Positions 4,041 to 60,275 of a DNA stretch of 60,275 nt are shown here, piece by piece. The stretch comes from Anaerolineae bacterium (GTDB lineage: Bacteria; Chloroflexota; Anaerolineae; Aggregatilineales; Phototrophicaceae): the NCBI GenBank assembly GCA_019912985.1, contig JAIOHN010000079.1, positions 1 to 60,275 of the forward strand, given 5' to 3'. Position numbers and translations under genes: made by a program. The stretch's first letter is position 1. Each line of letters begins with the position of its first letter. The notes beneath the pieces were generated by a model. The model saw only the letters and a program-made list of their open reading frames with translations, ran no database searches and was not told the DNA's origin.

Positions 4041-4053
4041 TGTTGTGCTTTAT

Positions 4054-4157
4054 ACGCCATTTTGCCTATAGGAAGCCGCGCGTTTCGGCGCTCATCATAT
4101 GCCGGACCGGGTACTATGCTGTAACTGATTGACATTCGAGTTAGCTCTAGGAAATCA
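4054..4157 (+). repeat. left copy of a ~90-100-nt imperfect direct repeat (partner 6391-6476)
   Basis: Shared blocks by eye: CGCCATT-TGCCTATAG, CGCG, GCGCTCA-CATAT-CC-GAC, GTACT, TTAGCT, AAATC. Both copies lie directly upstream of a start codon. Confidence 0.6.
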
Positions 4158-6298: not shown

Positions 6299-6390
6299 AT
6301 GGGCCATGATGTCATGCGTTTCTGGGCAATCGCTGGATCGAGCGCCGATTGTTTACAGTGGTCTGTTTTCACTCACGCAGCAGCCGCTAT

Positions 6391-6476
6391 GCGCCATTCT
6401 GCCTATAGATACCTACGCGACTCAGCGCTCACCATATACCAGACAATGGAGTACTCTGGAATTAGCTGAAAATCCC
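6391..6476 (+). repeat. right copy of the imperfect direct repeat (partner 4054-4157)
   Basis: See 4054-4157. It lies in the leader of the CBM48 gene. Confidence 0.6.
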
Positions 6477-12294: not shown

Positions 12295-12308
12295 GCGCCA
12301 TTTGGCGC
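12295..12308. promoter_or_regulatory. perfect 14-bp palindrome GCGCCATTTGGCGC (orphan copy of the recurrent motif)
   Basis: Read directly, 75 nt upstream of the DUF2933 gene. No TAnnnT hexamer at the 24-nt offset on either side. Confidence 0.4.
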
Positions 12309-27504: not shown

Positions 27505-27681
27505 ATGAATGTGAAAGACCCGGTCTGTGGTATGGAGATCGATCCCAAAGAGGCCGCTGGCAAATCGGAATACCAGGGGCACACGTACTACTTCTGTTCA
27601 TCCGATTGCAAGAAAGCTTTCGATAAAGAACCGGAGAAGTACGTCGGCAGACACGAGGAGCATGGCGGCCATCACCATTAG
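27505..27681 (+). CDS. YHS/TRASH-domain metal-binding protein with His-rich tail
   Basis: AAGGAGG RBS. DPVCGMEIDPKEAAGKSEYQGHTYYFCSSDCKKAFDKEPEKY, then HEEHGGHHH. Confidence 0.85.
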   Translation: MNVKDPVCGMEIDPKEAAGKSEYQGHTYYFCSSDCKKAFDKEPEKYVGRHEEHGGHHH

Positions 27682-28113: not shown

Positions 28114-28155
28114 CGCCATTTGGCGCTTTTACAAGATACCGGAAACGAGTAAGGT
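28114..28155 (+). promoter_or_regulatory. palindrome CGCCATTTGGCG + 24 nt + TAAGGT (putative gap-pckA promoter)
   Basis: Palindrome 28114-28125, 24-nt spacer, hexamer 28150-28155, 46 nt upstream of the gap ATG. Confidence 0.5.
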
Positions 28156-28201
28156 GTGATTGTTGAAATTCCTCAATCCGATCACCTGTTGGGAGGTAAA
28201 C

Positions 28202-29263
28202 ATGTTTCACCAGAAGGTTCGAGTCGCCGTCAATGGCTACGGTATCATCGGTAAGCGAATCGCCGATGCAGTTGCGGTGCAAGACGATATGGAACTGGTC
28301 GGTGTCGCTGATGTTGTTACCGATTGGCGCATCAAGGTGGCCCTCGAAAAAGGACTTCCTGTTTTCGCATCGACATCAGAGGCTGCTGTGCAAATGCGGG
28401 CTGCTGGCATTCCGTTAACCGGCACGTTCAACGAGCTGCTTAACCAGGTTGACGTGATTGCCGATGCCACCCCAAAGAAAGTCGCGGCAGCTAACCTGGA
28501 AAAGTATCGCGCCGCGGGCGTGAAGTCGGTCTTTCAGGGTGGCGAGAAGCACAGTCTGACCGGTCACTCTTTTGTGGCCCAAGCCAACTACGCCACTGCG
28601 CTAGGCCGCGATACCACACGGGTGGTTTCATGCAATACCACCAGCATCGTTCGCACACTAGGTGCGCTGAGGCAAGCCGGGTTACTGAAGAAAGCGCGCG
28701 GAGTCCTTGTTCGCCGCGCGACCGATCCCTGGGAGTCAGATCACAGTGGGGTAATGAACACGGTTGTCCCTGAAACCACCATTCCCTCGCACCAAGGACC
28801 GGATGCTCAGACGGTCATCCCTGATCTGGACGTCGTTACCATCGCGGTTGTAGCAGCTCATACGACCAGTCATCTGCACGCCTGGAGCGTGGAACTTACC
28901 CGCGCTGCAACCAAAGACGAAGTGCTGGCTACCTTCCGCGCGGTTCCTCGTATCGCTTTTCTGCAAGCCGGGGACGGAATCGTTGCATTGAACAGTACCT
29001 TGGAGTTGATGGCTGATCTAGGCCGTCCTCGCGGCGACATGTGGGAGGTGGGACTGTGGGAAGACAGTCTGACCGTGAAGGGGAATGAGGTGTTCTACAA
29101 TTACCAGGTCTACAATCAGGCCATTGTGGTTCCCGAAACTATTGATGCTATTCGCGCGCTCAACGGCATCGAGCAAGACGGGATGAAGTCTATTGCCAGG
29201 ACGGATCAGGCGATGGGGCTGGTACGCGAGTTCGTTGGGCAGCGCGAGGCGGCTACCTACTGA
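28202..29263 (+). CDS. gap: type II (archaeal-type) glyceraldehyde-3-phosphate dehydrogenase
   Basis: GGGAGG RBS. VRVAVNGYGIIGKRIADAVAVQDDMELVGV, FQGGEKH and RVVSCNTTSIVRTL closely follow the archaeal class II GAPDH pattern. Confidence 0.85.
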   Translation: MFHQKVRVAVNGYGIIGKRIADAVAVQDDMELVGVADVVTDWRIKVALEKGLPVFASTSEAAVQMRAAGIPLTGTFNELLNQVDVIADATPKKVAAANLEKYRAAGVKSVFQGGEKHSLTGHSFVAQANYATALGRDTTRVVSCNTTSIVRTLGALRQAGLLKKARGVLVRRATDPWESDHSGVMNTVVPETTIPSHQGPDAQTVIPDLDVVTIAVVAAHTTSHLHAWSVELTRAATKDEVLATFRAVPRIAFLQAGDGIVALNSTLELMADLGRPRGDMWEVGLWEDSLTVKGNEVFYNYQVYNQAIVVPETIDAIRALNGIEQDGMKSIARTDQAMGLVREFVGQREAATY

Positions 29264-29297
29264 GGGTTTGACTTGATTTCATCCAGGAGGTTCTATT

Positions 29298-30899
29298 ATG
29301 CAAGTGCAAGGCGCAGTCCACAGTTCATACGGCCTTGAAAATCATGGTATCCAGAACGTCAATATGGTGTACTGGAATCTCTCGACGTCGCTGCTGTATG
29401 AGGAGGCCATTCGCCGCCGTGAGGGGCGGCTGGCCCATCTCGGGCCGCTCGTGGTGCGCACAGGTCACCACACGGGGCGCTCACCGAACGATAAATTCAT
29501 CGTGCGCGAGCCATCCAGCGAGAGCAAAATCTGGTGGGGCAAAATCAACCAACCCATGGAACCAGACAAGTTCGCAACGCTTCATCTGAGGCTGCTGGCC
29601 TACCTGCAAGGCAAAGATGTGTTCGTGCAAGATTGTTCTGCGGGAGCGGACCCGGCTTACCGCCTGCCTATTCGTATCATCACCCAAACCGCGTGGCACA
29701 ACCTGTTCGCGCGCAATATGTTCATCCAGGCGGAACCAGAAGAGTTGGCGGCGCATACGCCGCAGTTTACCGTCATTGATACGCCTGGCTTTCACGCCAT
29801 CCCCGAACTGGATGGCACACGTTCTGAAGTGTTCATTGTCATCAATTTTGAGCAAAAGCTTGTGCTTATCGGCGGCACGCAGTATGCAGGAGAAATCAAA
29901 AAGGCGATCTTCACGGTGATGAATTATCTGCTGCCGCAGCAGAACGTCATGTCTATGCACTGCTCAGCTAACATTGGCTCAGATGGCGACACAGCAGTCT
30001 TTTTTGGACTCTCCGGCACCGGCAAAACCACGTTGTCGGCGGAACCCACACGTACACTTGTTGGTGATGACGAGCATGGCTGGAGCGACCGGGGTGTCTT
30101 CAACTTCGAAGGCGGCTGCTATGCGAAGGTAATCCGTCTGTCGCCGCAGGCAGAACCGGAGATATATGAAACCACGCGCCGCTTTGGGACTATTCTCGAG
30201 AACGTGGCGTTTGACAGCGCCACAGGCCGTTTGAGCCTGGACGATGACACGCTGACTGAAAATACGCGGGCTGCTTACCCAATCAGCCATATTCCTAACG
30301 CGACCCGAGATGGTCTTGGCGGTCACCCGACCAACATCATCATGCTGACCGCCGACGCCTTTGGGGTACTTCCTCCGATTGCTAGACTTACCCCAGCGCA
30401 GGCGATGTATCATTTCCTTTCCGGCTACACCGCCAAAGTTGCCGGGACGGAGCAGGGCATCACTGAGCCGCAGGCCACCTTTAGCGCCTGCTTCGGCGCG
30501 CCCTTCATGGCACTCTCGCCGACTGTGTATGCTGATCTCCTAGGCGAGAAAATCACCAGGCATCAGGTTAATGTCTGGTTGATAAATACCGGTTGGAGCG
30601 GCGGGCCATACGGTGTGGGGGAGCGGATGAAAATCGCCTACACCCGAGCAATGGTTCATGCTGCGTTGAGCGGCGAACTCACAGAGGTTGCGACGATCCC
30701 CGATCCCATCTTTGGCGTTGCCGTGCCTGCAAGTGTCCCCGACGTACCATCAGAAGTTCTCAACCCGCGCAATACCTGGATGGATAAGGAAGCCTATGAC
30801 ACACAGGCCCACAAACTGGCGGTTATGTTTTCTGAGAACTTCAAGGCGTTTAACGATCAGGTTTCGTCTGAGGTGAAGGTTGCCGGACCCAAGTTGTAA
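29298..30899 (+). CDS. pckA: phosphoenolpyruvate carboxykinase (ATP)
   Basis: [38 protein letters not shown]-like LVGDDEHGW, and NTGWSGG. Confidence 0.9.
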
Positions 30900-30943
30900 T
30901 CGGGGTCACATAAGATCAGCTGAAGGCAGCGTTGGGGATAAAA

Positions 30944-32584
30944 ATGGTGATCCAGTTTCTCATTGACAATCCGCTATTCATGCTGTTTTTAATCGCAGCT
31001 ATTGGCTATCCGTTAGGGCGTATCAAGATTCGCGGAAGCAGCCTGGGCGTCGCAGCCGTACTGTTTGTGGGTCTCGCTATAGGCGCATTAGACCCAAACC
31101 TGAAGCTGCCTGACGTGCTTTACCAGCTTGGTTTGGTCGTGTTCGTCTACACCATTGGCTTGAGCAGTGGGCCGGGGTTTTTTGCCTCACTGCGACGCAA
31201 GGGGTTGCGTGACAACCTCTTCATAGCGGTGATGCTGATGCTGGCGACGGGCCTGACCATCGTCATATATGGTGCGCTTCGCCTGACACCGGCGCTGACA
31301 GCGGGCATGTATGCAGGTAGCCTTACCAATACACCGGCGTTGGCGAATGTGCTGGATTATATTGAAAACTATACGCCTCAAACCGAGATTGACCAGTTGC
31401 TTGTTGAGCCAGTGGTGGGCTATTCACTGACCTATCCCATGGGTGTGATCGGTATGATCCTTGGGATCTCCCTGATGCAGCGGCTCTGGAAGGTGGATTA
31501 CACTCGCGAAGCGCGGAGCCTGCCGGAATCCGAGGCAGGAAAACCGCTGCAAGGCCGTACTGTTCACATTACTGCCCCTGAAGCTGCTCAGGCCACCATC
31601 GAGGAACTGGTTCAGCAACAGGGATGGGATGTGATCTTTGGGCGCCTACAACATCGCGGCCACGTCTCGCTTTCCAATGGTCAGAGCCGTTTCGAGATGG
31701 GAGATTTGGTAAGTGTTATTGGCTCGCCTGAGGAACTTGACGTTGTAACCGCCTATCTGGGCAAAGTGAGCGATGAACAACTTGAATTCGACCGGAGCCT
31801 GCTCGACCACCGGCGTGTCTTCGTCTCCAATCCCAGGGTGGTGGGGCATCGCCTGCGTGACCTCAACCTGCCTCAGCATTTCGGTGCCCTGGTGACTCGC
31901 TTGCGACGTGGTGACGTGGATTTTCTACCCCATGAGGACACGGTGTTACAGCCTGGCGACCGGGTGCGAGTGGTCGCGCCACGCACACATATGGACGCAG
32001 TGAGCGCTTTTTTCGGCGATTCCTATCGTTCTCTAAGCGAAATTGATTTCATGACCTTTAGCCTTGGCCTGGCGCTGGGACTGCTGCTGGGGCTGATCCC
32101 GATCCCGCTGCCGAGCGGTATGACCCTCAGACTTGGATTGGCGGGCGGCCCACTGATCGTCGCCATGGTACTGGGGAGACTGGGACGCACCGGTCCGCTG
32201 GTGTGGAGCCTGCCCTACAGTGCTAACCTTACCTTGCGCCAGGTGGGTTTGATCCTTTTCTTAGCTGGGGTGGGCACGCGCTCCGGCTATGCCTTTGTGA
32301 CCACCCTCACTCAGGGCCAGGGGGCGGCGATTTTCCTGGCCGGCGCATCTATCACTTTTAGCGTCGCCCTGGCGACTCTCTGGGTGGGACATCAATTCCT
32401 CAAAATACCGATGGGCTTGCTGATCGGGATGCTGTCCGGCTTACAGACACAGCCTGCGGTGCTGGGTTTCGCATTGGAACAAGCCGACAATGAATTGCCC
32501 AACATCGGCTACGCCGCTGTCTATCCTACCGCCACGATCGCTAAAATTCTCGTAGCGCAATTACTGGTGGTTGTTTTATGGTGA
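30944..32584 (+). CDS. YidE/YbjL/AspT-family transporter with two internal RCK_C (TrkA-C) domains
   Basis: N- and C-terminal TM bundles flank two RCK_C-like segments (GDLVSVIGSPEELD and LQPGDRVRVVA). Confidence 0.75.
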   Translation: MVIQFLIDNPLFMLFLIAAIGYPLGRIKIRGSSLGVAAVLFVGLAIGALDPNLKLPDVLYQLGLVVFVYTIGLSSGPGFFASLRRKGLRDNLFIAVMLMLATGLTIVIYGALRLTPALTAGMYAGSLTNTPALANVLDYIENYTPQTEIDQLLVEPVVGYSLTYPMGVIGMILGISLMQRLWKVDYTREARSLPESEAGKPLQGRTVHITAPEAAQATIEELVQQQGWDVIFGRLQHRGHVSLSNGQSRFEMGDLVSVIGSPEELDVVTAYLGKVSDEQLEFDRSLLDHRRVFVSNPRVVGHRLRDLNLPQHFGALVTRLRRGDVDFLPHEDTVLQPGDRVRVVAPRTHMDAVSAFFGDSYRSLSEIDFMTFSLGLALGLLLGLIPIPLPSGMTLRLGLAGGPLIVAMVLGRLGRTGPLVWSLPYSANLTLRQVGLILFLAGVGTRSGYAFVTTLTQGQGAAIFLAGASITFSVALATLWVGHQFLKIPMGLLIGMLSGLQTQPAVLGFALEQADNELPNIGYAAVYPTATIAKILVAQLLVVVLW

Positions 32585-32888: not shown

Positions 32889-33554
32889 ATGATGATTTTG
32901 AACTTGCTCGTTGTCGAAGATGAACCCGAATTTGCCGACTATCTGCGACGCGGACTGTCATATGACGGCTATCAGGTTCGGGTTGCCTCCTCCGCTGAAG
33001 CCGGACTGGAAGAGGTTCGTCGAAGTCCACCTGATTTGATTATTTTCGATGTGATGCTGCCTCTTATGGATGGCATTATGGCTTGTCGTTGTCTGCGTGA
33101 ATGGGGATACGCTGGCCCCGTATTGATGCTGACCGCCCGCGATGCGATTGATGATCGTGTGACCGGGTTAGATTCCGGCGCAGATGACTATCTGGCAAAA
33201 CCCTTTGATTTTGATGAACTTTTGGCGCGATTACGGGCGCTTCTGCGCCGCAGGGGTTATGGAACCTCAATTCTCTCCTTTGCTGACGTGGAACTAGATA
33301 CTCGTCTTCGCACAGCCGCACGTCGCGGTTCAACCATCACTCTGAGCCGCACTGAGTATGATTTACTGCTCTTTTTTCTATCTTACCCGGAACAAACGCT
33401 TACCCGTGAAGTCTTGCTTGAAAATATTTGGGGCACCGCGCCGGGATTGAATTCTAATGTGCTCGATATTTATATTTCTCGCCTTCGCCACAAACTCGGA
33501 GAACCGCCGCTTATCCACACCCTCTATGGCATTGGTTATGTGTTAAAAAAATGA
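32889..33554 (+). CDS. OmpR-family response regulator
   Basis: Receiver domain (LVVEDEPEF...DLIIFDVMLP...KPF) plus winged helix (LSRTEYDLLLFFL...IHTLYGIGYVLK). Confidence 0.9.
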   Translation: MMILNLLVVEDEPEFADYLRRGLSYDGYQVRVASSAEAGLEEVRRSPPDLIIFDVMLPLMDGIMACRCLREWGYAGPVLMLTARDAIDDRVTGLDSGADDYLAKPFDFDELLARLRALLRRRGYGTSILSFADVELDTRLRTAARRGSTITLSRTEYDLLLFFLSYPEQTLTREVLLENIWGTAPGLNSNVLDIYISRLRHKLGEPPLIHTLYGIGYVLKK

Positions 33555-34921
33555 TTTCACTGAAGTGGCGACTCACCTTATGGTACGTAGCCTTCACAGT
33601 TTTCGGGCTGTTAGGGTTGATGTCCATTTCTTATTATTTGTTTTCTATATCGCTTCAGAACGAGATTGACCGCACCCTCGCCGAGCGCGCCAATCATGTC
33701 GTTGACGCGCTCGCCATCACCCCGAATCGCCCGATACAGGGCGTCTCTTTGGGAACAACGGATGAGTTCAGCGCGCCAGGGGTCTTCCTGCAAATTCTAA
33801 ACGCCGATGGAGAAGTCGTCGCCCGTTCTTTCAATCTAGGCACACGGCGGCTGCCGCTGCCAACCCTAAGCGAGGTGAAAACGCTCGCCCCTTCGTACTA
33901 TACGCTGCGGATTGACGAACAGCCAGTTCGTCTCTCTTACAAACCGCTGACGCGCGAGGGCAGAATTGTGGGCGTAGTGCAGGTTGGTCAATCGCTCATT
34001 GGTTTGGAGACCACTCTGAGCCAGCTACGCTTGATTTACACCATCGGCGCAGCCGCCGTACTGCTCTTTGGTCTACTCACCGGTTGGGTGGTTGCACATT
34101 TCGGTCTAAAGCCGGTTGTACACCTCACAGCTACTGCACGGGACATCGTTCGCGCTGAAGACCTCGCACGCCGTGTGCCCGCTCCTAGAACAAAAGATGA
34201 AATTGCAGTTTTAGCAGCTACCTTCAACCAGATGTTAGACCGGCTTCAATCGTTGTTTGAGGGGCAGCACCAATTCCTGTCTGAAGTCGCCCACGAGCTG
34301 CGTACTCCGCTGAGTACCATGCTGGGTAATGTCGATCTGATTGTCCATTATGGGGAAGATGCAGAACGGCGTAGCGAGACGATCAGGGCGCTCCAGCGCA
34401 CCGGACGGCACGTCGCTCGACTGTTAGACGATTTGCTGCTTCTGGCCCAAGCCGAGGCTGGATGGCATCTCCAGATGCGCCCTTTTTCGATTGACGACAT
34501 TCTGATTGAAGTTTACGAAGCCTCATTCAACCCTAAGCTCCAACTCCAGACCTGCGAGCCTGCTTACGTGCAAGGCGATCCAGACCGTCTGCGCCAGGTC
34601 CTCATGAACCTGCTTGACAACGCGATGAAATATTCGCCTTCAGAAAGCATCATTGCGCTTGACTTATGGCGGGAGAATGATCGCGTATGGATGCAGGTCA
34701 GAAATGTTGGAGCCAACATTCCACAGGAGGCCCTTTCGCAAGTCTTTGCCCCCTTTTTCCGTCTACAGACACATTCGTGGCAGCCGGGCACCGGGTTAGG
34801 GTTAACGATCGTGCGCTGGATCGTCCAGGAACACGGCGGCGAAATCAGTGTCGAGAGTTCCCTTGAAAACGGGATGACTATCAAATTCTGGCTGCCAGCA
34901 TACGACTTACCCGTCACGTAA
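33551..34921 (+). CDS. sensor histidine kinase (2 TM, HAMP, HisKA, HATPase_c)
   Basis: 4-nt overlap with the regulator gene. H-box FLSEVAHELRTPLS, N-box LLDNAMKYS, G-box GTGLGLTIV. Confidence 0.9.
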   Translation: MISLKWRLTLWYVAFTVFGLLGLMSISYYLFSISLQNEIDRTLAERANHVVDALAITPNRPIQGVSLGTTDEFSAPGVFLQILNADGEVVARSFNLGTRRLPLPTLSEVKTLAPSYYTLRIDEQPVRLSYKPLTREGRIVGVVQVGQSLIGLETTLSQLRLIYTIGAAAVLLFGLLTGWVVAHFGLKPVVHLTATARDIVRAEDLARRVPAPRTKDEIAVLAATFNQMLDRLQSLFEGQHQFLSEVAHELRTPLSTMLGNVDLIVHYGEDAERRSETIRALQRTGRHVARLLDDLLLLAQAEAGWHLQMRPFSIDDILIEVYEASFNPKLQLQTCEPAYVQGDPDRLRQVLMNLLDNAMKYSPSESIIALDLWRENDRVWMQVRNVGANIPQEALSQVFAPFFRLQTHSWQPGTGLGLTIVRWIVQEHGGEISVESSLENGMTIKFWLPAYDLPVT

Positions 34922-34987
34922 TTGAAACTGAGACAGTTGTTCCTTTCTCTGTTCAGGGTAACTGAAATATAACCTTTTCTCATCAAA

Positions 34988-35017
34988 TTGACAGAATTTG
35001 GAGAGAACTTTTTAAAT
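34988..35017 (+). promoter_or_regulatory. sigma70-like promoter candidate (TTGACA, 18 nt, TTAAAT)
   Basis: TTGACA at 34988-34993 and TTAAAT at 35012-35017, about 100 nt upstream of the CDF::HflK gene. Confidence 0.35.
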
Positions 35018-35115
35018 CGGTTTGGTTAGTCTTTATGAGTTTATGGCTTGCATATATTCCGAGGATAACCCAGAACTTCTCACCTTGCTAATGGATTATC
35101 GTGAACAGTTGAATT

Positions 35116-36666
35116 ATGAACCGCAAAGAACGCACCATATTCGTAACGATTATCGTCAATATCCTGCTGATCCTCTTCAAATTCGGGTTAGCGGGCGCTT
35201 CTGGAAGTGAGGCGCTCCAAGCAAGCGCTGTTCATTCGGTCACGGATGCGGCGATTGGCGTATTTGTTCTGCTCGGCCTGTTCATTGGTCGATGGGATGC
35301 CTCGCGTCCAGCGGTCAAGCAGCGCTTTAGCCAGATTGAGAATTGGATCGCTCTGGTTGTGGCAGCAGCCATCTTCTACGTCGCCTACGACATCGTAATC
35401 GAAGTCTTGAGCGGTGAAACGCCCGAACTCCGAAATCTCGGTGTGATCACTATTGCTTCTCTGATCACAGTGGCCGCCGCCTATTTCATCGCACGTTATA
35501 AACAGTATGTCGGTAAGCAGACCAACTCGCCAGCGCTGCTCGCCAGCGGCGCACACTCGCAAATGGACATTTATGCGGCCATTGTGGTGGTGGTCGGACT
35601 GGCGGGGTCGGCGCTAGGGCTGCCCAATCTTGACCGAGCAGCAGCAGCGGTCGTGGTCGTATTCATCGTGTTTTCGGGTTACGAAATTGCTGTTTCTGCT
35701 ATCAGCGCCCTTCGCCGACATGAGGTGTTAGAAATTGATGGCGAACCCGGCCATCAACATGCACCGAGAAAATTGTGGCGATTATTTCTCCCGATTGCAG
35801 GCATATCTCTGGTCATTGTGTATTTGCTCTCCGGGTTATACGTCGTTCAGCCCGGAGAGATTGCCGTTGTCCGTCGTTTTGGGCAAGTCGTCACGCCTGA
35901 TGTTGGACCAGGGCTGCACTACCGATTACCCTGGCCCATAGATCGCGTTGATATCGTGGATGCCGCGTCTATCCGGCGCGCTGAACCCGGGGCGAGCCTG
36001 ATGCTGACTGGCGATCAAAATCTGATCTCAGTGCGCTTCAGCCTACACTATGTTGTGACTGATGCAGCGGCTTTTCTGCTGAATGTTGGCGATCCAGCCC
36101 GACTGGTCACGCAGGCTGGCGAGTCCGCCATGCGCCAGGTGGTTGCCCAGGAAAGTGTGGATTCGTTATTGACGGTAGACAAGGCAGAAATCGAAGAACG
36201 GGTGAACGCATTCGCGCAGTCCACGTTGGACGCTTACAACGCCGGACTACAAGTTGTTGGTATACAACTTCTTGAAAGCAATCCGCCGGCTGAAGTCGCA
36301 GATGCGTTCCGCGACATCGCCAGCGCCCGTGAGGATCAAAATACGTTTATTAACGAGGCTCAGGCTTATGCCAACGAGATCGTTCCGATAGCGCGTGGCG
36401 ATGCTGCGACTACCGTTCAAAACGCGAATGCCTACTACTCTGAAAAAATCGGTCAGGCCAATGGCGATGCGGTGGTGTTCGCCAATCAGCAGGCAGCCTA
36501 CGCCGAGTCGTCGGACATCACCCGTCTACGCATGTATCTCGTTGCGATGGAAAGCGTTCTACCGGGCGTGCGCAAATTTATCCTCGATCCAAGCATCCAG
36601 CTAGAGACAACTGATTTGTGGTTTCAGGGTGGCAGCAGCATTCAATCACTGCCACCGCTGCCGTAA
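35116..36666 (+). CDS. chimeric protein: cation-diffusion-facilitator TM core fused to an HflK-like SPFH domain
   Basis: N-terminal half has six TM segments with both HxxxD site motifs (AVHSVTD, AHSQMD). C-terminal half has a TM helix plus VQPGEIAVVRRFGQV...GLHYRLPWPIDRVDIV and an SPFH/coiled tail. Confidence 0.8.
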   Translation: MNRKERTIFVTIIVNILLILFKFGLAGASGSEALQASAVHSVTDAAIGVFVLLGLFIGRWDASRPAVKQRFSQIENWIALVVAAAIFYVAYDIVIEVLSGETPELRNLGVITIASLITVAAAYFIARYKQYVGKQTNSPALLASGAHSQMDIYAAIVVVVGLAGSALGLPNLDRAAAAVVVVFIVFSGYEIAVSAISALRRHEVLEIDGEPGHQHAPRKLWRLFLPIAGISLVIVYLLSGLYVVQPGEIAVVRRFGQVVTPDVGPGLHYRLPWPIDRVDIVDAASIRRAEPGASLMLTGDQNLISVRFSLHYVVTDAAAFLLNVGDPARLVTQAGESAMRQVVAQESVDSLLTVDKAEIEERVNAFAQSTLDAYNAGLQVVGIQLLESNPPAEVADAFRDIASAREDQNTFINEAQAYANEIVPIARGDAATTVQNANAYYSEKIGQANGDAVVFANQQAAYAESSDITRLRMYLVAMESVLPGVRKFILDPSIQLETTDLWFQGGSSIQSLPPLP

Positions 36667-44962: not shown

Positions 44963-46678
44963 CTAAACCTGGCCGCCAAGAGTCTGACGCCCCAGATCAC
45001 TTTCAGGGCTGAATTCATCCGATATGATCTCGACGATGGTGCCTTCATCGGCCCAGTCATATAGCACCTTTGCCTCATCATCGCGTGACATCACACAACC
45101 CAGCGTATAGGGTGTGCCGACGCTGTTGCCGCCCAAGTAAGTGCCATCCGGCAGTAAAACCGCTCCATGAAAACCATTCACGAGGCCGGGCACAACTTCG
45201 TAAATGCCCATAAACCAGTTCATTTCCCACTGTCCGCAACCCGTCTCGCCACAAAGCGTGTAACTGCTGCCATAGGCAACCGGCTCATGGCTGAAAATCT
45301 GGTAAATACCGGGGGATGTAGGCGCAGAGGTGATGCCGGACGAGATGCGCCAGTTGAAGACTTCGACACCGTTTTCGTAGGCGACCATCGACTGTGTATC
45401 CAGATTAACGATGATCCGTTTACTGGCGACCGGATCAAGTGGAACGGTCGCGTCACGCGAGGGGATGCTCAAGGTGTCGCCGGGTGACAACTGGCTCAAG
45501 TCCCGCCCGGGATTGTTTTCTTCGATCAGAAAAAAAGGAAGGCCAGTCTTGCGCGCGATTCCATAGGCCGTATCGCCAGCAGCCACCGTATAGACTGTAG
45601 GGCGATGTCGGATACGAAACTGAACATTACTGCGTCTGCTTCTGAACGCCTCCTGGATTTCTTGCATAACTTTTGCTCTATCGAGGTACAGTTCCTTTTC
45701 TTGCTGATCCCTGGACTCATTTAGTGCGGTATTCAGGGCTTCAAGAAACGGTGCGAAAGTTTCTTCTCGCAAGGTCAGACCATCATGACGCACCTCTAGC
45801 CAGGATGTAAACGTATCACGGTCTGTGCGCCAATCGATGAATTCGTTTGTGAAGGGATCGTAACCCCGCATGGCGAACGGCTGGTTGGCAAGTTGGCGAG
45901 CATCTTCCAGATAGGGGATCGGATCGACCATATCGGGTTCCACCCTGTTGGTTACCAACTGTAGCCTGAGCCGCTGGGCTATTTCAACAGGTCCTTGTGT
46001 CAGAAGCTCCAGTGTCGCACCAACATCCAGCATCCGGCCATCACGTCCCGGTACGCCCACCAGTGCGTCGCCCTCCCATTTATATCCTGCATTGACTGGC
46101 GCGAAGCTCACTTCTTCCGAAATGGTCAGCAAGTACTCCTGAGCAGTCAAGTAATCGACCTCTACAACAGGTGGAACACCATTGCCGAAAGGGATGCCAG
46201 ACAGGCCAATGCCGAGCGCGGATTGGGCGGTTTGGCGCGCATCGAGCGACAGTCCCAATTGACTCGGACTGGCGGTCCATGTGCGATCCTCATCGACCAG
46301 TTGGATGCGCAAATCGTCATACCAGGCGTCGCGCAGAGCGGTTGCCGCTTCATCTACGGTCATGTCACCGATGTAAATGCCCACCACCCAGATATTAGGG
46401 AAAATACGGCCCGCCAGGAGATGGGCGGCGATATACAAGAATAGAGCGGTTACAGGAACAGCCAGTAGGGCTTTAGCGATCGTCGGATTGCGCTGAATAT
46501 ACCACAATCGATCCTGTACAAACCATATGGTTCGCTCAAATTTCGTTATATCCGGCACAGGCCGTCGCTTGACCATCGCTTCACGTTTACGCTCGCGGGC
46601 TATCTGCCGCTGACGGGCGCTACTGACATGATGCCGCCGAGTGACTTGCTCATTCATCTCTTGCTGCCTCCGGTTCAA
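44963..46678 (-). CDS. L,D-transpeptidase (YkuD) with LysM and N-terminal peptidoglycan-binding-like region
   Basis: LysM YTVAAGDTAYGIARKTGLPFFLIEENNPG...LSPGDTLSIP. YkuD IIVNLDTQSMVAYENG...GFHGAV...TLGCVMS. Confidence 0.85.
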   Translation of the reverse strand: MNRRQQEMNEQVTRRHHVSSARQRQIARERKREAMVKRRPVPDITKFERTIWFVQDRLWYIQRNPTIAKALLAVPVTALFLYIAAHLLAGRIFPNIWVVGIYIGDMTVDEAATALRDAWYDDLRIQLVDEDRTWTASPSQLGLSLDARQTAQSALGIGLSGIPFGNGVPPVVEVDYLTAQEYLLTISEEVSFAPVNAGYKWEGDALVGVPGRDGRMLDVGATLELLTQGPVEIAQRLRLQLVTNRVEPDMVDPIPYLEDARQLANQPFAMRGYDPFTNEFIDWRTDRDTFTSWLEVRHDGLTLREETFAPFLEALNTALNESRDQQEKELYLDRAKVMQEIQEAFRSRRSNVQFRIRHRPTVYTVAAGDTAYGIARKTGLPFFLIEENNPGRDLSQLSPGDTLSIPSRDATVPLDPVASKRIIVNLDTQSMVAYENGVEVFNWRISSGITSAPTSPGIYQIFSHEPVAYGSSYTLCGETGCGQWEMNWFMGIYEVVPGLVNGFHGAVLLPDGTYLGGNSVGTPYTLGCVMSRDDEAKVLYDWADEGTIVEIISDEFSPESDLGRQTLGGQV

Positions 46679-46793: not shown

Positions 46794-46835
46794 AAATTAG
46801 CCTATTCTAATCGTGATGCCATGCGCCATTTGGCG
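46794..46835 (-). promoter_or_regulatory. palindrome CGCCATTTGGCG + 24 nt + TAATTT on the minus strand (putative promoter of the Ldt-sortase-FG-GAP operon)
   Basis: Palindrome 46824-46835. The minus-strand hexamer TAATTT corresponds to plus coordinates 46794-46799, about 115 nt upstream of the start at 46678. Confidence 0.5.
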
Positions 46836-47184: not shown

Positions 47185-48042
47185 TTATGCTTCGTGCGCA
47201 GTCACATCAACGAAATCGCCGTGCCAGTGATGAAGCCAGACCTGTTCATTGTAGCCGTTTACGCTCAGCATTCCAATGATTTCGCCATCTTGCAGGACGT
47301 GAAGGGTGTAGTAGCCGTAAAAGGCATCCGCTTCGTCACTGGCCTGAGTTCCTGGAAGAACCTCATCCAGATAAAGTTGGGCTAGTTCGGTCGCCTGTTC
47401 GGACGATACCGGCATGTCATCACCACTGTCCGTTGGCCGGAACAAACCCATGCCGCGTGTCATCATACCATAACGCAGATTCCACATCATGTTAGGACCC
47501 GGTTCGCCGACAACGACGCCGGTCTGGGGATCGATGAGGAACTCGAACGCACCTTGCCCGGTCTCAGCCTCACGTGCCTGAGCATAGAAATGGTTGCTGA
47601 ACTGCATGACCTCTGCCAGTTCCAGGGGTTGCTCGCTCTCCCAGGTGCCGATATACGCCTGAGCCACCCCAACAGCTTCTTCCAGTGTCAGGGCATCACC
47701 TGCCGGTGCCAGGTCCGAGGGCGGAGTCCAGGCACCCATCATGCCGGTTCCAGGCCCAAAGCGCATAGTCGATTGATCGAAGCCCATCATGTTGTGCATC
47801 ATCATGCCATTCATGCGGCCCATCATCCCGCCCATCATGCCCATACCAAACATCCCCTGTTGAGCACAGGCTTCTGACAAATTAAGATCGCGCGTGCCTC
47901 GGCCCATCATGCCACCGAACATCTCATCGAAGCCACAGGGTGGGTTATCCGGTCCCTGAGCAGAGGCTGCCAGGACCCCCGATATCAGCACAGTGGCTAA
48001 GATCACGATGACCACAAGCGTGCTTTTGGACAGTTGCTTCAT
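47185..48042 (-). CDS. secreted Met/Gly-rich protein with PepSY-like domains
   Basis: Signal peptide. MFGGMMGRG...GMFGMGMMGGMMGRMNGMMMHNMMGF...GTGMMG tract. PepSY-like LTLEEAVGVAQAYIG... and FYGYYTLHVLQDGEIIGMLSVNGY. Confidence 0.75.
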   Translation of the reverse strand: MKQLSKSTLVVIVILATVLISGVLAASAQGPDNPPCGFDEMFGGMMGRGTRDLNLSEACAQQGMFGMGMMGGMMGRMNGMMMHNMMGFDQSTMRFGPGTGMMGAWTPPSDLAPAGDALTLEEAVGVAQAYIGTWESEQPLELAEVMQFSNHFYAQAREAETGQGAFEFLIDPQTGVVVGEPGPNMMWNLRYGMMTRGMGLFRPTDSGDDMPVSSEQATELAQLYLDEVLPGTQASDEADAFYGYYTLHVLQDGEIIGMLSVNGYNEQVWLHHWHGDFVDVTAHEA

Positions 48043-55599: not shown

Positions 55600-55736
55600 T
55601 ATCGAGGAAACACTGGCCCATCAACATTTCTTCTTCGGAATATTGAGCATCGCTATGGCATTGCGGATTGTCACTCAATGAGCAAGCTCGTTGACTCGGT
55701 AACAGCAGGGCCGCGCATCCCGTTGCGTTGGTTCCA

Positions 55737-55808
55737 ATGATAGATGGGAGAAGAGGGTACAGAATGCGCTATTTGGCGGGTTTCAGATTAGAACCTGGTA
55801 AATAGATT
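55737..55808. promoter_or_regulatory. palindrome CGCTATTTGGCG flanked at 24 nt on both sides by TAnnnT hexamers (TATCAT minus strand, TAGATT plus strand)
   Basis: Palindrome 55767-55778. Minus-strand hexamer at plus coordinates 55737-55742. Plus-strand hexamer at 55803-55808. Confidence 0.5.
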
Positions 55809-55822
55809 AGACGTCCGTCTAA
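55807..55822. other. perfect 7-2-7 palindrome TTAGACG-TC-CGTCTAA abutting the stop codon of the kinase gene
   Basis: Read directly. The 2-nt centre excludes a full hairpin. It could be a weak stem-loop or a protein-binding site. Confidence 0.4.
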
Positions 55823-55823
55823 C

Positions 55824-56882
55824 TTATGTAGCGCTTGCTTCCAGTTGAAGATACGTCTCTGGATCGCTTTGAAAAGCGCCCTGACACACTGGACAGCAGA
55901 AGTAGTAAGTCTGATTCAGGTAGAGCGCACTGGCATAGGCTTGATGTGGTTCAATTATTGTGCTGCACACCGGATCACGAACCGAATTGGGCGGTTGATG
56001 GCGGTCATCTTCGGGTAGAAAAATGGTGATAGTGGTCCCGGAATCTTTCTGGCTCCTGACGTTGACAGTGCCATCGAGGTGCTGAACTCGTTCATGAATA
56101 CCCAGTAATCCATAATGACCATCAGTTGCCAGTGCGCCCACATGTTTGGGTGGGACAAAGCCCTCACCGTTGTCGCTGACGATCAGGCGAACACCATTCG
56201 GCTCGTAGACAACTTTGATGTCCACCCGTGTCGCATGGCCGTGACGACAGGCGTTGATGAGTGCTTCCTGGGCACTGCGGAACAACGCCAGTTCATGGGA
56301 TTCATCCAATCGTCGTTCCGTCCCTTCGACCGCAATCGACACCGGGAAGCTAGCGTGTTTATCCGCCTGAAGCCGTAACGCTGCCACCAGCCCTAATTCA
56401 TTCAGGGCTGGTGGTCGCAAGTCGCCGATCAGATCCCGCAGTTCAGCGATGGTGTCCAGTGACTGTTTGCGCGCCTCTACCAGGGTTGTGATGGCGTGTT
56501 CAGGATCGCTTTTGACCCACTTCTGTGCCATATCCATGCTCCAGGCAATCGCCACCAATGACTGGATGGTCTGGTCATGCAGTTCGCGTGCGATGCGGGC
56601 GCGTTCGGCCTCCTGTCCATTGGCTAGCTCCTCAGCGTACACAAAGCTGTGTTCCTGGGAACGGCGAACATGCCGTACCATGCCAGCCATTGAGCGGCGG
56701 AGCGCATCAATCTCGGCAATACCTCCACAGGGCTTATCCAATGCTCCAAAATCGCCTTGTGTGATCTGACTGGCTTGCGAACACAGTCGGCGCAGGGGAT
56801 TCACAATCCGGTGGAAAACCCAGATATGGCTTGCCAACAGCGCAACCAGGACAACCCCACACAACTCGAGCAAATCACTCAC
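55824..56882 (-). CDS. NarL-partner (HisKA_3) sensor histidine kinase with C-terminal YHS/TRASH domain
   Basis: One TM, HAMP-like linker, ERARIARELHDQTIQSL H-box, HATPase_c (DNGEGF, GLLGIHERV). C-terminal DPVCSTIIEPHQAYASALYLNQTYYFCCPVCQGAFQSDPETY. Confidence 0.8.
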   Translation of the reverse strand: MSDLLELCGVVLVALLASHIWVFHRIVNPLRRLCSQASQITQGDFGALDKPCGGIAEIDALRRSMAGMVRHVRRSQEHSFVYAEELANGQEAERARIARELHDQTIQSLVAIAWSMDMAQKWVKSDPEHAITTLVEARKQSLDTIAELRDLIGDLRPPALNELGLVAALRLQADKHASFPVSIAVEGTERRLDESHELALFRSAQEALINACRHGHATRVDIKVVYEPNGVRLIVSDNGEGFVPPKHVGALATDGHYGLLGIHERVQHLDGTVNVRSQKDSGTTITIFLPEDDRHQPPNSVRDPVCSTIIEPHQAYASALYLNQTYYFCCPVCQGAFQSDPETYLQLEASAT

Positions 56883-57523
56883 ACCGCCTCTCCTTCATCC
56901 AGGGTGATCAGGCTGTATTTGAGCGCTAGAGCAACGGCTTCGGTACGAGTGGTTACGCCCAGTTTCTGGTAAATATTTTTCAGGTGACCTTGTACGGTGC
57001 GGTCCGAAATGAATAAGATATTGCCGATTTCCTTGTTCGTCAGGCCATAGCCGGCCTGTTTTAATACCTGAATCTCGCGATCAGTCAAGCCCTCAACCAG
57101 GATCTGCATGTCCTGTTGATGGTGGGCGGCCCTTTCGAGCGTCTGAGCGTCAAACGCTTTCCGGCCAACCGCGACTTCCTGAAGCGCCTTCAAGAGTTCG
57201 GCAAGCTCCGCCGTTTTGAGCACAAACCCATCGGCCCCGGCATCGAGCAAAGCGTGGATATACGATGGCTCATCATAGGCCGTGAGGACGAGCACCCGGA
57301 TATCGTCGTTTTCGTGGCGAATACGCCGGGTGGCCTCTACACCGGTGAGTTCGGGCAGGTGAATATCCATAATGACCACATCCGGCTGGAGTTCACGGGA
57401 CAGAGAGACTCCCTCGCGCCCGTTGGTGGCTTCGCCGATCACCTCAATGCCCTCGCTTTCGAGGTAGAGCCGTGTACCCTGACGCACCACCTTGTGATCT
57501 TCGACCAGCAGCACCCTGATCAT
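56879..57523 (-). CDS. NarL/LuxR-family response regulator
   Basis: Start at MIRVLLVEDH. Receiver domain plus LTDREIQVLKQAGYGLTNKEIGNILFISDRTVQGHLKNIYQKLGV. 4-nt overlap with the kinase gene. Confidence 0.9.
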   Translation of the reverse strand: MIRVLLVEDHKVVRQGTRLYLESEGIEVIGEATNGREGVSLSRELQPDVVIMDIHLPELTGVEATRRIRHENDDIRVLVLTAYDEPSYIHALLDAGADGFVLKTAELAELLKALQEVAVGRKAFDAQTLERAAHHQQDMQILVEGLTDREIQVLKQAGYGLTNKEIGNILFISDRTVQGHLKNIYQKLGVTTRTEAVALALKYSLITLDEGEAV

Positions 57524-57556
57524 GCCGGCGTCCCTTTCGCTATGTTCCTTACATAT

Positions 57557-57628
57557 AACATAGCAGAAGAAGTTGACTTCAGAACCCGCCAAATGGCGCA
57601 TATGCGCGTAACTCATTCCTTATATACT
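57557..57628. promoter_or_regulatory. palindrome CGCCAAATGGCG flanked symmetrically at 24 nt by TATGTT (minus strand) and TATACT (plus strand): divergent promoter pair
   Basis: Palindrome 57587-57598. Minus-strand hexamer at plus coordinates 57557-57562, 34 nt upstream of the regulator ATG. Plus-strand hexamer at 57623-57628, facing copZ. Confidence 0.55.
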
Positions 57629-57806
57629 AGGCAAGCTTATACGATACCCGATGCAATAGGGATAGCGGATGCCTTCTGAGCGCAAGTTGAGTGGGATGTT
57701 GTGTACAATTGCTATGCTGACTGTAGCAACTGTACACCCCAAATTTCGGCGTGCGATTTGGTCTCTGTTGAAGGATCAAGGGCATTGGATGCACATCAGC
57801 CTGATC

Positions 57807-57826
57807 TGAATTCGAGTGAATTCGAG
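57807..57826 (+). repeat. tandem duplication of the 10-mer TGAATTCGAG
   Basis: Read directly in the copZ leader. Confidence 0.7.
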
Positions 57827-57913
57827 AAACAGTCCGTTATCAAGATCCGCTCAAAGAACAAGCTATCCTACGGCATCACTTCAAATCTGTAATCCTTAAA
57901 AGGAGATGATACA

Positions 57914-58123
57914 ATGGATAAGAAGTCATTCCAGGTTCCGAACATCGGCTGTGACGGCTGTGTCAAGACAATCAAGAATGAACTGAGCGCGCTGCCGGGC
58001 GTGAAACGCGTCGATGGCGAGGTGGACAGCAAGGTTGTAACCGTTGAATGGGACGATCCGGCCAACTGGGACAAGATTGTTGAGACGCTCAGGGAAATTG
58101 ACTACGCACCCGCCGGGGTATGA
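57914..58123 (+). CDS. copZ: CopZ-like HMA-domain metallochaperone
   Basis: AAGGAG RBS. FQVPNIGCDGCVKTIKNELSALPGVKRVDGEVDSKVVTVEW. Confidence 0.8.
   Translation: MDKKSFQVPNIGCDGCVKTIKNELSALPGVKRVDGEVDSKVVTVEWDDPANWDKIVETLREIDYAPAGV

Positions 58124-58632: not shown

Positions 58633-58646
<14 letters not shown>
58170..58646 (-). CDS. class I c-type cytochrome, probable lipoprotein
   Basis: Lipobox-like IIMGAC. Haem motif CASCHG with a distal Met region (YPMPAF). 14-nt overlap with the ATPase gene. Confidence 0.8.

Positions 58647-60275
<1,629 letters not shown>

Follow-up and report, generated by a model that had tools for sequence, protein, structure and literature searches.

A candidate copper-sensing two-component system of the Chloroflexota in which a YHS domain follows the ATP-binding domain of a histidine kinase

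The 60,275-nucleotide (nt) contig JAIOHN010000079.1 of an Anaerolineae bacterium (GenBank assembly GCA_019912985.1; Chloroflexota), the whole of which was analyzed and is referred to below as the window, encodes close to one of its ends a sensor histidine kinase whose ATP-binding domain is followed by a YHS/TRASH domain, together with a NarL/GerE-type response regulator. The question raised by this locus is what such a kinase senses and on which side of the membrane it does so. In the CusS/CusR, CopS/CopR and PcoS/PcoR systems a kinase and a response regulator switch on copper export or detoxification and are autoregulated; to our knowledge the well-studied copper two-component systems all sense the metal outside the cytoplasm, and the reading of cytoplasmic copper is generally attributed to proteins of the one-component type, namely CueR, CsoR, CopY and archaeal CopR. 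As described below, the YHS tail of the kinase, together with neighboring copper-export genes that share a palindrome, makes the protein most likely an intracellular copper sensor. That the pair and the palindrome belong to one copper regulon we regard as highly probable, and the entire chain of events, a copper-responsive two-component system that senses its metal in the cytoplasm, as somewhat probable.

A YHS/TRASH module in the last ∼50 residues of the kinase had been proposed in a first-pass annotation of this DNA, and a hidden Markov model scan for PF04945 (33.1 bits, above the Pfam cut-off of 30.3 bits) agrees with that assignment, with which the best matches of the predicted fold, to YHS and TRASH structures, are consistent. 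The AlphaFold2 model of the last 70 residues has a predicted local distance difference test score (pLDDT) of 91.2 and its top Foldseek matches in the Protein Data Bank (PDB) are the alpha subunits of ToMO, T4MO and phenol hydroxylase and the ribosomal protein L24e, all of them weak (E 0.25-1, TM-score 0.5), while a match to the YHS modules of diiron hydroxylases was also obtained at the sequence level. The motif of the window kinase, DPVCST...YYFCCPVCQGAF, includes the CST that had been noted in its first part and is close to the family consensus DPVCSA...FCCPVC. It contains a candidate ligand pattern, D303-P-V-C306 followed after 22 residues by C329-C-P-V-C333, that fits (D/C)-x2-C...C-x3-C, with D303, C306, C329 and C333 invariant in 121/121 sequences as well as in a subfamily of kinases from the Chloroflexia that is described below. 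Invariant YHS columns in the 121-sequence alignment are D303, P304, C306, F328, C329, C330, P331, C333, G335, F337 and P341, and this part is the most conserved region of the kinase outside of the catalytic boxes; C330 is an extra thiol of the Anaerolineae-type subfamily only and is replaced by serine in the soluble Chloroflexia type. The connection to the catalytic domain is short, with HATPase_c ending near residue 292, the YHS domain starting at residue 301 and an invariant Q296-P297 in between. The same domain is also encoded in the window as a stand-alone protein, as had been claimed, with 43% identity to the kinase domain by tblastn.

Precedents for copper sensing by such modules are available from two quite different systems. 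In the class IIIc adenylyl cyclase of M. phlei, the one YHS sensor that has been tested, a C-terminal YHS domain confers ∼6-fold activation by 1-10 μM Cu2+ and D178, C181, C204 and C208 have been proposed as the ligand set (PMC4626032); kinase residues D303, C306, C329 and C333 correspond to these four. In P. furiosus CopR a TRASH domain confers copper sensitivity, which is lowered by its deletion (PMC7830388).

The catalytic core of the kinase and the type of its partner place it in the HisKA_3/NarL class, and it lies outside the CusS/CopS class, having neither a periplasmic domain nor an OmpR-type partner. The NCBIfam model cztS_silS_copS gives a score of only 15.8 bits, and the best PDB matches of the full-length AlphaFold2 model (pLDDT 83.5) are DesK and VraS, with Foldseek E-values of ∼1e-11 to 1e-12. 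The phosphoacceptor H102 is located in an ELHD box and is invariant in both subfamilies, and the N, G1 and G2 boxes of HATPase_c are intact, with N210, D237/G239/G241 and G258/G261 invariant in the family alignment. Only one hydrophobic stretch can be found in the protein (residues 4-24), preceded by ∼3 residues, and reading of the sequence reveals no extracytoplasmic sensor domain flanked by two transmembrane helices. The earlier picture of a single transmembrane helix, a HAMP-like linker, HisKA_3 and HATPase_c is therefore reproduced by sequence and Pfam, the HAMP match falling below threshold. In the 121-sequence alignment C8 of the anchor is kept in 86/121 and W21 in 117/121 sequences, while in the linker H71 shows no variation in either subfamily, C52 being mostly conserved in the Anaerolineae type. 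An external sensor domain being absent, the YHS domain would be the only candidate input module of the kinase.

The response regulator gene overlaps that of the kinase by 4 nt (GTGA) and the two are translationally coupled; wherever a locus is long enough to show it, the same pairing is present. Residues D9, D53, T81 and K103 of the receiver domain are intact, and the output domain is of the GerE type, not an OmpR-like winged helix.

A search of 5.8 billion proteins establishes that the fusion is real. Among the best 120 Anaerolineae-type clusters listed (48-94% identity) all are of 332-372 residues and 118/120 have a precomputed match to PF04945, the named members being from Anaerolineae, Aggregatilineales and Phototrophicaceae. 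A frameshift or mis-assembly as the source of the fusion is ruled out by this conservation of length and architecture; no stop or frameshift separates the kinase from a small YHS gene, the kinase being a single open reading frame (ORF) that is conserved in the homologue clusters. A second subfamily, with at least 120 clusters, consists of soluble kinases of ∼322 residues from Chloroflexia (Roseiflexaceae, Chloroflexales, Oscillochloris) that have no transmembrane helix and, in a joint alignment, no C52, and yet retain the YHS ligands. The single-helix picture thus holds for the window kinase, but the helix is dispensable, and the existence of the soluble form means that sensing must be cytoplasmic and rules out an obligatory membrane signal. 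The architecture had been called unusual at the outset, which is so with regard to the literature but not with regard to nature, where hundreds of clusters exist. Databases already annotate the fusion automatically (JGI: 'signal transduction histidine kinase/YHS domain-containing protein'), and in the literature on YHS/TRASH histidine kinases, two-component systems and Chloroflexi we found no description of it; the two-component pair is widespread in Chloroflexota and apparently undescribed. A C-terminal profile search of 1.84 billion representatives returned 9153 YHS-like matches, mostly multi-YHS repeat proteins, and gave no useful family count, the kinase family having collapsed to a handful of 50%-identity clusters.

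Two observations on individual relatives may be added; L-numbers, here and below, are labels of related loci and coordinates given with them are those within each locus. L006 (Anaerolineae bacterium CG2_30_64_16) encodes a related kinase that is 40% identical over residues 23-290 and is without a YHS domain; a separate 58-residue YHS protein that is 70% identical to the stand-alone protein of the window is encoded after copA, and the palindrome discussed below is absent. In this locus the system may be present in split form. The metagenome-assembled genome GCA_002702065, whose kinase is 94% identical to that of the window, encodes in addition a second pair of YHS kinase and regulator, 53% identical and accompanied by the same palindrome (L085, P0043, Tara Oceans), which adjoins a P-type ATPase that lacks an HMA domain, a multicopper oxidase, DUF305, Fur and a cation diffusion facilitator (CDF) transporter. 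Two paralogous systems in one genome would then share one operator.

The conservation patterns described above can also be read in a different manner, in which the pair does control a copper regulon via the palindrome, with the YHS domain only a structural zinc module or a docking site for CopZ, for a GDCCVxC protein or for the small YHS protein, and with the signal perceived by the transmembrane helix (C8, N19, W21), by the linker (C52, H71) or by a partner protein. The invariance of H71 in both subfamilies and the conservation of C52 and C8 in the Anaerolineae type are in keeping with this reading, as are the YHS modules of diiron hydroxylases, which have no sensing role and which, with L24e, provide the PDB matches, and the small Cys-rich proteins (GDCCVxC, stand-alone YHS) that are encoded in or near some of the loci. 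However, the soluble subfamily has dispensed with both the helix and C52 while keeping the YHS ligands, conservation outside the catalytic motifs is highest in the YHS domain itself, and the cyclase and archaeal CopR, where this has been tested, sense copper through YHS/TRASH domains. We consider a purely structural role unlikely, and favor the YHS domain as the sensor.

The genes that surround the pair point to copper. In the window copZ, a cytochrome c gene and copA are found on one side and an F510_1955/TlpA/DUF3105/CcdA operon on the other, so that the placement of the pair between copZ/copA and an envelope operon, proposed initially, is borne out by the ORFs and by Pfam; CopA has the CPC, YN(x4)P and MxxSS motifs. 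The order P-type ATPase, divergent 69-residue copZ, regulator, YHS kinase is identical in four independently annotated loci, and tblastn with the window proteins recovers the same arrangement, where the contig suffices, in L085, L086, L087 and most of L088-L131. A metagenome scan with the pattern FCCPVCQG contributed 44 more loci. Linked genes in relatives include a multicopper oxidase and DUF305 (L085) and F510_1955 (L091, L126), while loci of the soluble subfamily adjoin multicopper oxidases, CopA, CopZ and the copper storage protein Csp; the copper context is therefore conserved across two classes of Chloroflexota. In relatives with a copZ-regulator spacer of ∼335 nt a gene for a GDCCVxC protein (NF041374, 101 bits; 64-72 residues, ∼10 Cys) is located between the palindrome and the regulator gene, as in L094 (4314-4520), L102 (4324-4518), L107, L110 and L117, and is probably co-transcribed with the kinase operon.

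The operon downstream of the kinase in the window, with its two TlpA-like thioredoxins, CcdA/DsbD_TM and DUF3105, raises the possibility that the cysteine cluster (C306, C329, C330, C333) senses thiol or oxidative stress and that the regulon is an envelope/thiol-redox response that includes copper genes incidentally, and the additional vicinal Cys (CC pair) of the Anaerolineae type would be in line with such a function. The neighbors that persist across lineages are, however, the genes for CopZ, P1B ATPases, multicopper oxidases and Csp rather than those for thioredoxins, the extra Cys is missing from the Chloroflexia type, and the invariant Asp of D-x2-C suits metal coordination rather than a disulfide switch (PMC4626032). 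A redox sensor is, in our view, quite improbable, and we retain copper as the signal in what follows.

What connects the pair with its neighbors is a palindrome, CGCCA-TT-TGGCG, found between copZ and the regulator gene at a site that has the top position weight matrix (PWM) score in the window, 29.4. Exact copies of CGCCAWWTGGCG in the window number 4 where 0.03 are expected, and the PWM sites that rise above shuffle noise are those at 57587, 28114, 12296, 55767 and 46824, with 17079 marginal. At the position equivalent to 55767, L091 and L126 have exact palindromes. In 312 kb of family loci the sequence CGCCA-WW-TGGCG was counted 32 times, compared with 0 times in 1.05 Mb of control loci, the surroundings of unrelated HisKA_3 kinases taken from a full-length-alignment scan that had picked generic HisKA_3 patterns, a contrast that somewhat overstates specificity because the controls come from many phyla and have other base compositions. 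In all 22 of the 22 non-identical loci that hold both gene starts the palindrome lies between copZ and the regulator gene; its distance to the copZ ATG is 62-76 nt in 20/22, and its distance to the regulator ATG is 56-63 nt where the copZ-regulator spacer is ∼140 nt. The initial assignment of the palindrome to the pair's own promoter hence applies to the window, but in most relatives the palindrome is at the copZ promoter and serves the regulator operon only if the spacer is short. Further copies precede copA/ATPase genes (L001 5672, L086 392, L090 577, L105 1352), the first of these in the CsoR-copA spacer ∼940 nt past the window end, and a multicopper oxidase gene (L085 9088), and related sites such as GGCCATCTGGCC and CGCCATTTGGCC occur in Chloroflexia loci (four loci only). 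One of the sites in the window, 12296, stands before a DUF2933-ICMT cassette of a kind known as a repeated neighbor of copA in copper-resistance loci of marine origin (PMC8478169).

In the aligned spacers conservation is confined to the palindrome, to a TAnnAT-like box on either side of it and to the ribosome-binding site of copZ. When extended, the consensus of the palindrome reads aAaATgCGCCAWWTGGCGcATtTt, such that the 5-2-5 core grows to roughly 8-2-8, ATGCGCCA-WW-TGGCGCAT. When the 34 unique sites are considered in both directions (68 flanks), TAnnnT starts 24 nt after the palindrome in 42 and 25 nt after it in 12, amounting to 54/68, with no more than 6 at any other offset. This spacing places the center of the palindrome near -42 of promoters that have no good -35 box and that are often bidirectional, a geometry that, judged from sequence, is typical of a class-II-type activator site. 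Because a sigma-70 consensus scan of 55600-58000 found nothing, the promoter geometry is taken from conservation across loci. A sigma-54 reading of TGGCG...TTGC was rejected, the spacing being off by one and the pattern confined to three loci. Finally, a scan of the whole window against Rfam returned no RNA family, and hence neither the palindrome nor a second repeat, described at the end, is a known RNA motif. As a separate observation, in 28114-32584 a full-strength palindrome with the right -10 spacing is followed by a type II archaeal-type GAPDH (NF003251, 447 bits), PEPCK and an Asp-Al_Ex/TrkA_C permease, and would link the copper operator, unexpectedly, to central carbon metabolism.

Which protein binds the palindrome is an important issue, since CsoR, CopY-like, MerR and Fur genes are found in some of the loci and the pairing of the GerE-type regulator with this site is deduced from sequence. 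It is conceivable that the palindrome is the operator of one of these proteins (CsoR, CopY/BlaI-like, MerR-like, or a regulator encoded elsewhere) and that co-location merely reflects shared copper islands. None of them is common to all of the loci, however: L086 has a CopY/BlaI-like neighbor, not CsoR, and within 8 kb of the pair in L087 no further regulator is encoded. The GerE-type regulator is, as a consequence, the only transcription factor common to all palindrome loci. The copA promoter of L090 (540-600) is particularly informative, as a canonical CsoR box, ATACCCCAGTGGGGTAT, is separated by 7 nt from the palindrome, CGCCATATGGCG, and a CsoR gene is transcribed divergently, implying that copA in this locus may be under dual control by a one-component and a two-component sensor. 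A CsoR operator (TACCC...GGGTA type) was rejected since the form differs and a separate CsoR box is present in L090, and a MerR-type operator since the palindrome sits upstream of the -35 region, whereas MerR-family sites are located between -35 and -10. Direct repeats are the targets of OmpR-family regulators, and a palindrome with a 2-bp center is an operator of the NarL 7-2-7/DosR type, bound by NarL-family dimers. The 27 distinct orthologues all have the same recognition helix, FISDRTVQGHL, which differs in non-family regulators, and the invariance of the helix is matched by that of the operator. A different binding factor thus appears very improbable, and the earlier suggestion that the GerE-type regulator is the most economical candidate is strengthened by these data.

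Taken together, these results suggest the following mechanism. The YHS domain would bind Cu(I) through D303, C306, C329 and C333, possibly after transfer of the metal from the neighboring CopZ, and occupancy would shift the position of the domain relative to the catalytic and dimerization and histidine phosphotransfer (DHp) domains in such a way that autophosphorylation of H102 is favored. The phosphoryl group would then pass to D53 of the regulator, whose dimer is predicted to bind a 12-18-bp site, (AT)GCGCCA-WW-TGGCGC(AT), centered ∼42 bp upstream of transcription starts, the predicted target sequence of the phosphorylated protein being ATGCGCCATTTGGCGCAT. In this manner the regulator would activate promoters whose -10 box is good and whose -35 box is poor, often in both directions. 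The putative regulon includes copZ, the operon of the pair itself and copA, in relatives also the multicopper oxidase and the GDCCVxC metal-binding protein, and probably envelope and thiol-redox genes (F510_1955/TlpA/DUF3105/CcdA, YkuD, DUF2933-ICMT). In this scheme we infer Cu(I) as the ligand, the on direction of the kinase, binding of the regulator to the operator, activation, and CopZ as the donor.

A number of points weigh against this proposal. Metal binding, regulation of the kinase and DNA binding are all deduced, and the Foldseek E-values of the YHS domain noted above are weak, because the domain is so small (∼45 residues). A related cysteine module in phenol hydroxylase 2INP reportedly holds a structural zinc, so that the YHS domain could be structural as well, and H71 is invariant without explanation, such that part of the sensing could occur in the linker. 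At the DNA level the site of the window is atypical, lying 315 nt from copZ, unlike in relatives; site 12296 is without a -10 box at 24-25 nt spacing; some sites, such as that before type II GAPDH/PEPCK, precede genes with no obvious link to copper; and a site that overlaps the -35 region fits repression as well.

This last point is pertinent to a variant in which the system operates as proposed but with Ag, Hg, Cd or Zn as the ligand, or with a regulator that represses and a kinase that copper turns off. GDCCVxC proteins and HMA chaperones are found in mercury contexts also (matches to MerP/MerT models), and Fur and CDF genes are present in the paralogous locus L085. By contrast, the linked ATPase matches best the Cu-type model TIGR01511 and has the three CopA motifs given above, multicopper oxidase and Csp are copper-specific, and a conserved -10 box, no recognizable -35 box and a fixed site at ∼-42 would be typical of activation. 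We assign to a different metal or the opposite sign a small probability only, and copper-dependent activation remains the mechanism that we prefer.

It is of interest to compare the proposed system with those known. The M. phlei cyclase (Linder 2015, PMC4626032) is similar in that its cytosolic YHS domain is C-terminal to the catalytic domain with a short linker, in that it shares the D-x2-C...C-x3-C ligands with the kinase and in that the cyclase is activated by copper only with the YHS domain; it differs in its output, which is cAMP and not His-Asp phosphotransfer, in its unrelated catalytic fold, in its origin from Actinomycetota and in that no regulon or operator is known. The archaeal regulators CopR/CopT, one-component copper regulators that combine helix-turn-helix and TRASH domains (PMC7830388; Ettema 2003, as cited there), likewise have a TRASH/YHS cysteine module as their intracellular copper sensor, the function proposed here for the YHS domain of the kinase, and they control divergent copA and chaperone genes via a semi-palindromic site. 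They are, however, Lrp-like octamers with the metal domain fused to the DNA-binding domain and without a phosphorelay.

Among two-component systems CusS, CopS and PcoS share with the present pair the combination of kinase and regulator, copper export targets and autoregulation (proposed here), but have two transmembrane helices around a periplasmic metal domain, a HisKA DHp domain and OmpR-type regulators that act on direct repeats, whereas the kinase described here has no external domain, a proposed C-terminal cytoplasmic sensor, a GerE-type regulator and a predicted palindromic site. DesK/DesR, LiaS/LiaR, VraS/VraR and NarX/NarL are alike in the folds of the DHp and catalytic domains and in the GerE-type regulator, the palindrome with its 2-bp center being NarL-like in form; these kinases differ in that membrane or envelope signals or nitrate are sensed N-terminally, with no sensor after the ATP-binding domain. 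CsoR, CopY and CueR sense cytoplasmic Cu(I) by thiolates and control copZ/copA, with CopZ of Enterococcus hirae passing copper to CopY, but they are one-component proteins that differ from it in fold and in operator. In L090 and L001 the system is accompanied at copA by a CsoR gene and a CsoR-type box, which suggests layered control rather than identity.

A broader proposition is that Chloroflexota use an unrecognized class of cytoplasmic metal-sensing kinase, whose YHS domain, placed after the ATP-binding domain, receives Cu(I) either directly or from CopZ and acts as master switch instead of CsoR, CueR or CopY, with a regulon that reaches envelope thiol-redox enzymes, L,D-transpeptidases and central metabolism via one bidirectional class-II-type operator; we consider the case for and against this generalization to be evenly balanced. 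If true, no two-component system would have been shown before to sense intracellular copper, and none to have its sensor domain at the C-terminus, after the catalytic domain; two-component signaling would gain a new input logic, and the YHS domain, which is poorly understood, would gain a second output that has been tested. In any event the analysis offers a testable regulon model, consisting of operator sequence, promoter geometry and target genes, for copper homeostasis in Anaerolineae and Chloroflexia, which are abundant, barely characterized bacteria of marine, mat and wastewater environments. Processes that would need protection from copper are indicated by the sites before the genes for L,D-transpeptidase, thioredoxin-like proteins and type II GAPDH, and the soluble Chloroflexia kinase with its compact operator would suit copper biosensors.

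Table 1. Positions in the window of the two-component genes, kinase domains, candidate regulatory sites and linked copper genes
Feature	Position	Strand	Basis or remark
Sensor histidine kinase	55824-56882	-	Single intact ORF of 352 residues, GTG start
Kinase N-terminal membrane anchor, residues 4-24 (LLELCGVVLVALLASHIWVFH)	56811-56873	-	Direct sequence reading
Kinase HAMP-like linker, residues 21-73	56664-56822	-	Pfam HAMP 24.2 bits, just under cut-off 25
Kinase HisKA_3 (PF07730), residues 93-160	56403-56606	-	Pfam 67.3 bits
Kinase HATPase_c (PF02518), residues 197-292	56007-56294	-	Pfam 51.3 bits
Kinase C-terminal YHS/TRASH domain (PF04945), residues 301-347	55842-55982	-	Pfam 33.1 bits, E 5.6e-8
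NarL/GerE-type response regulator, 214 residues	56879-57523	-	Pfam Response_reg 105.6, GerE 67.5 bits
Candidate operator palindrome (CGCCATTTGGCG)	57587-57598		copZ/regulator intergenic; 63 nt upstream of regulator ATG
-10-like box TATGTT	57557-57562	-	24 nt after palindrome, toward regulator-kinase operon
-10-like box TATACT	57623-57628	+	24 nt after palindrome, toward copZ
copZ-type HMA copper chaperone, GCDGC motif	57914-58123	+	Divergent from regulator gene; Pfam HMA 53.5 bits; NCBIfam copper-chaperone models
Cu(I)-type P1B ATPase CopA, cut by window end	58633-60273	-	NCBIfam TIGR01511, 546 bits
One-mismatch palindrome (CGCTATTTGGCG)	55767-55778		Upstream of F510_1955/TlpA/DUF3105/CcdA operon; PWM 23.0
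TATCAT box	55737-55742		24 nt from site 55767
Exact palindrome	46824-46835		Upstream of YkuD L,D-transpeptidase gene (44963-46678, -); TAATTT box at 24 nt
Exact palindrome	28114-28125		Upstream of type II GAPDH / PEPCK genes; TAAGGT box at 24 nt
Exact palindrome	12296-12307		Upstream of DUF2933 / ICMT-like methyltransferase / CMAS genes
Stand-alone YHS protein, 58 residues, His-rich tail (MNVKDPVCGMEIDPKEAAGKSEYQGHTYYFCSSDCKKAFDKEPEKYVGRHEEHGGHHH)	27505-27681	+	Pfam YHS 69.9 bits

Several other elements of the window deserve mention. An ORF of 63 codons with four N-terminal Cys between the palindrome and copZ (57701-57892, +) was rejected as a Cys-rich gene, as one of the Cys is lost in the relative with the 94%-identical kinase, substitutions are not biased toward synonymous changes and there is no homologue in the other loci; it is probably a non-coding leader. 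An intergenic element of ∼60 nt is present in two copies (4040-4120 and 6377-6460), CGCCATTyTGCCTATAG...GCGCTCAyCATATrCCrGAC, that resembles one half of the palindrome yet is a different repeat, without an Rfam match. A second module of the metal type is encoded at 32889-36666, where an OmpR-type regulator and kinase have cztR and cztS_silS_copS as their best NCBIfam models, both below cut-off, and are followed by a CDF cation-efflux protein fused to an SPFH/Band 7 domain. Finally, a secreted protein of 285 residues (47185-48042, -), encoded between genes for an OmpR-type two-component system and DUF302 and the YkuD gene, has no match in Pfam or NCBIfam and contains an extreme Met-rich stretch, MFGMGMMGGMMGRMNGMMMHNMMGF; its sequence suggests a protein that binds Cu(I) outside the cytoplasm.

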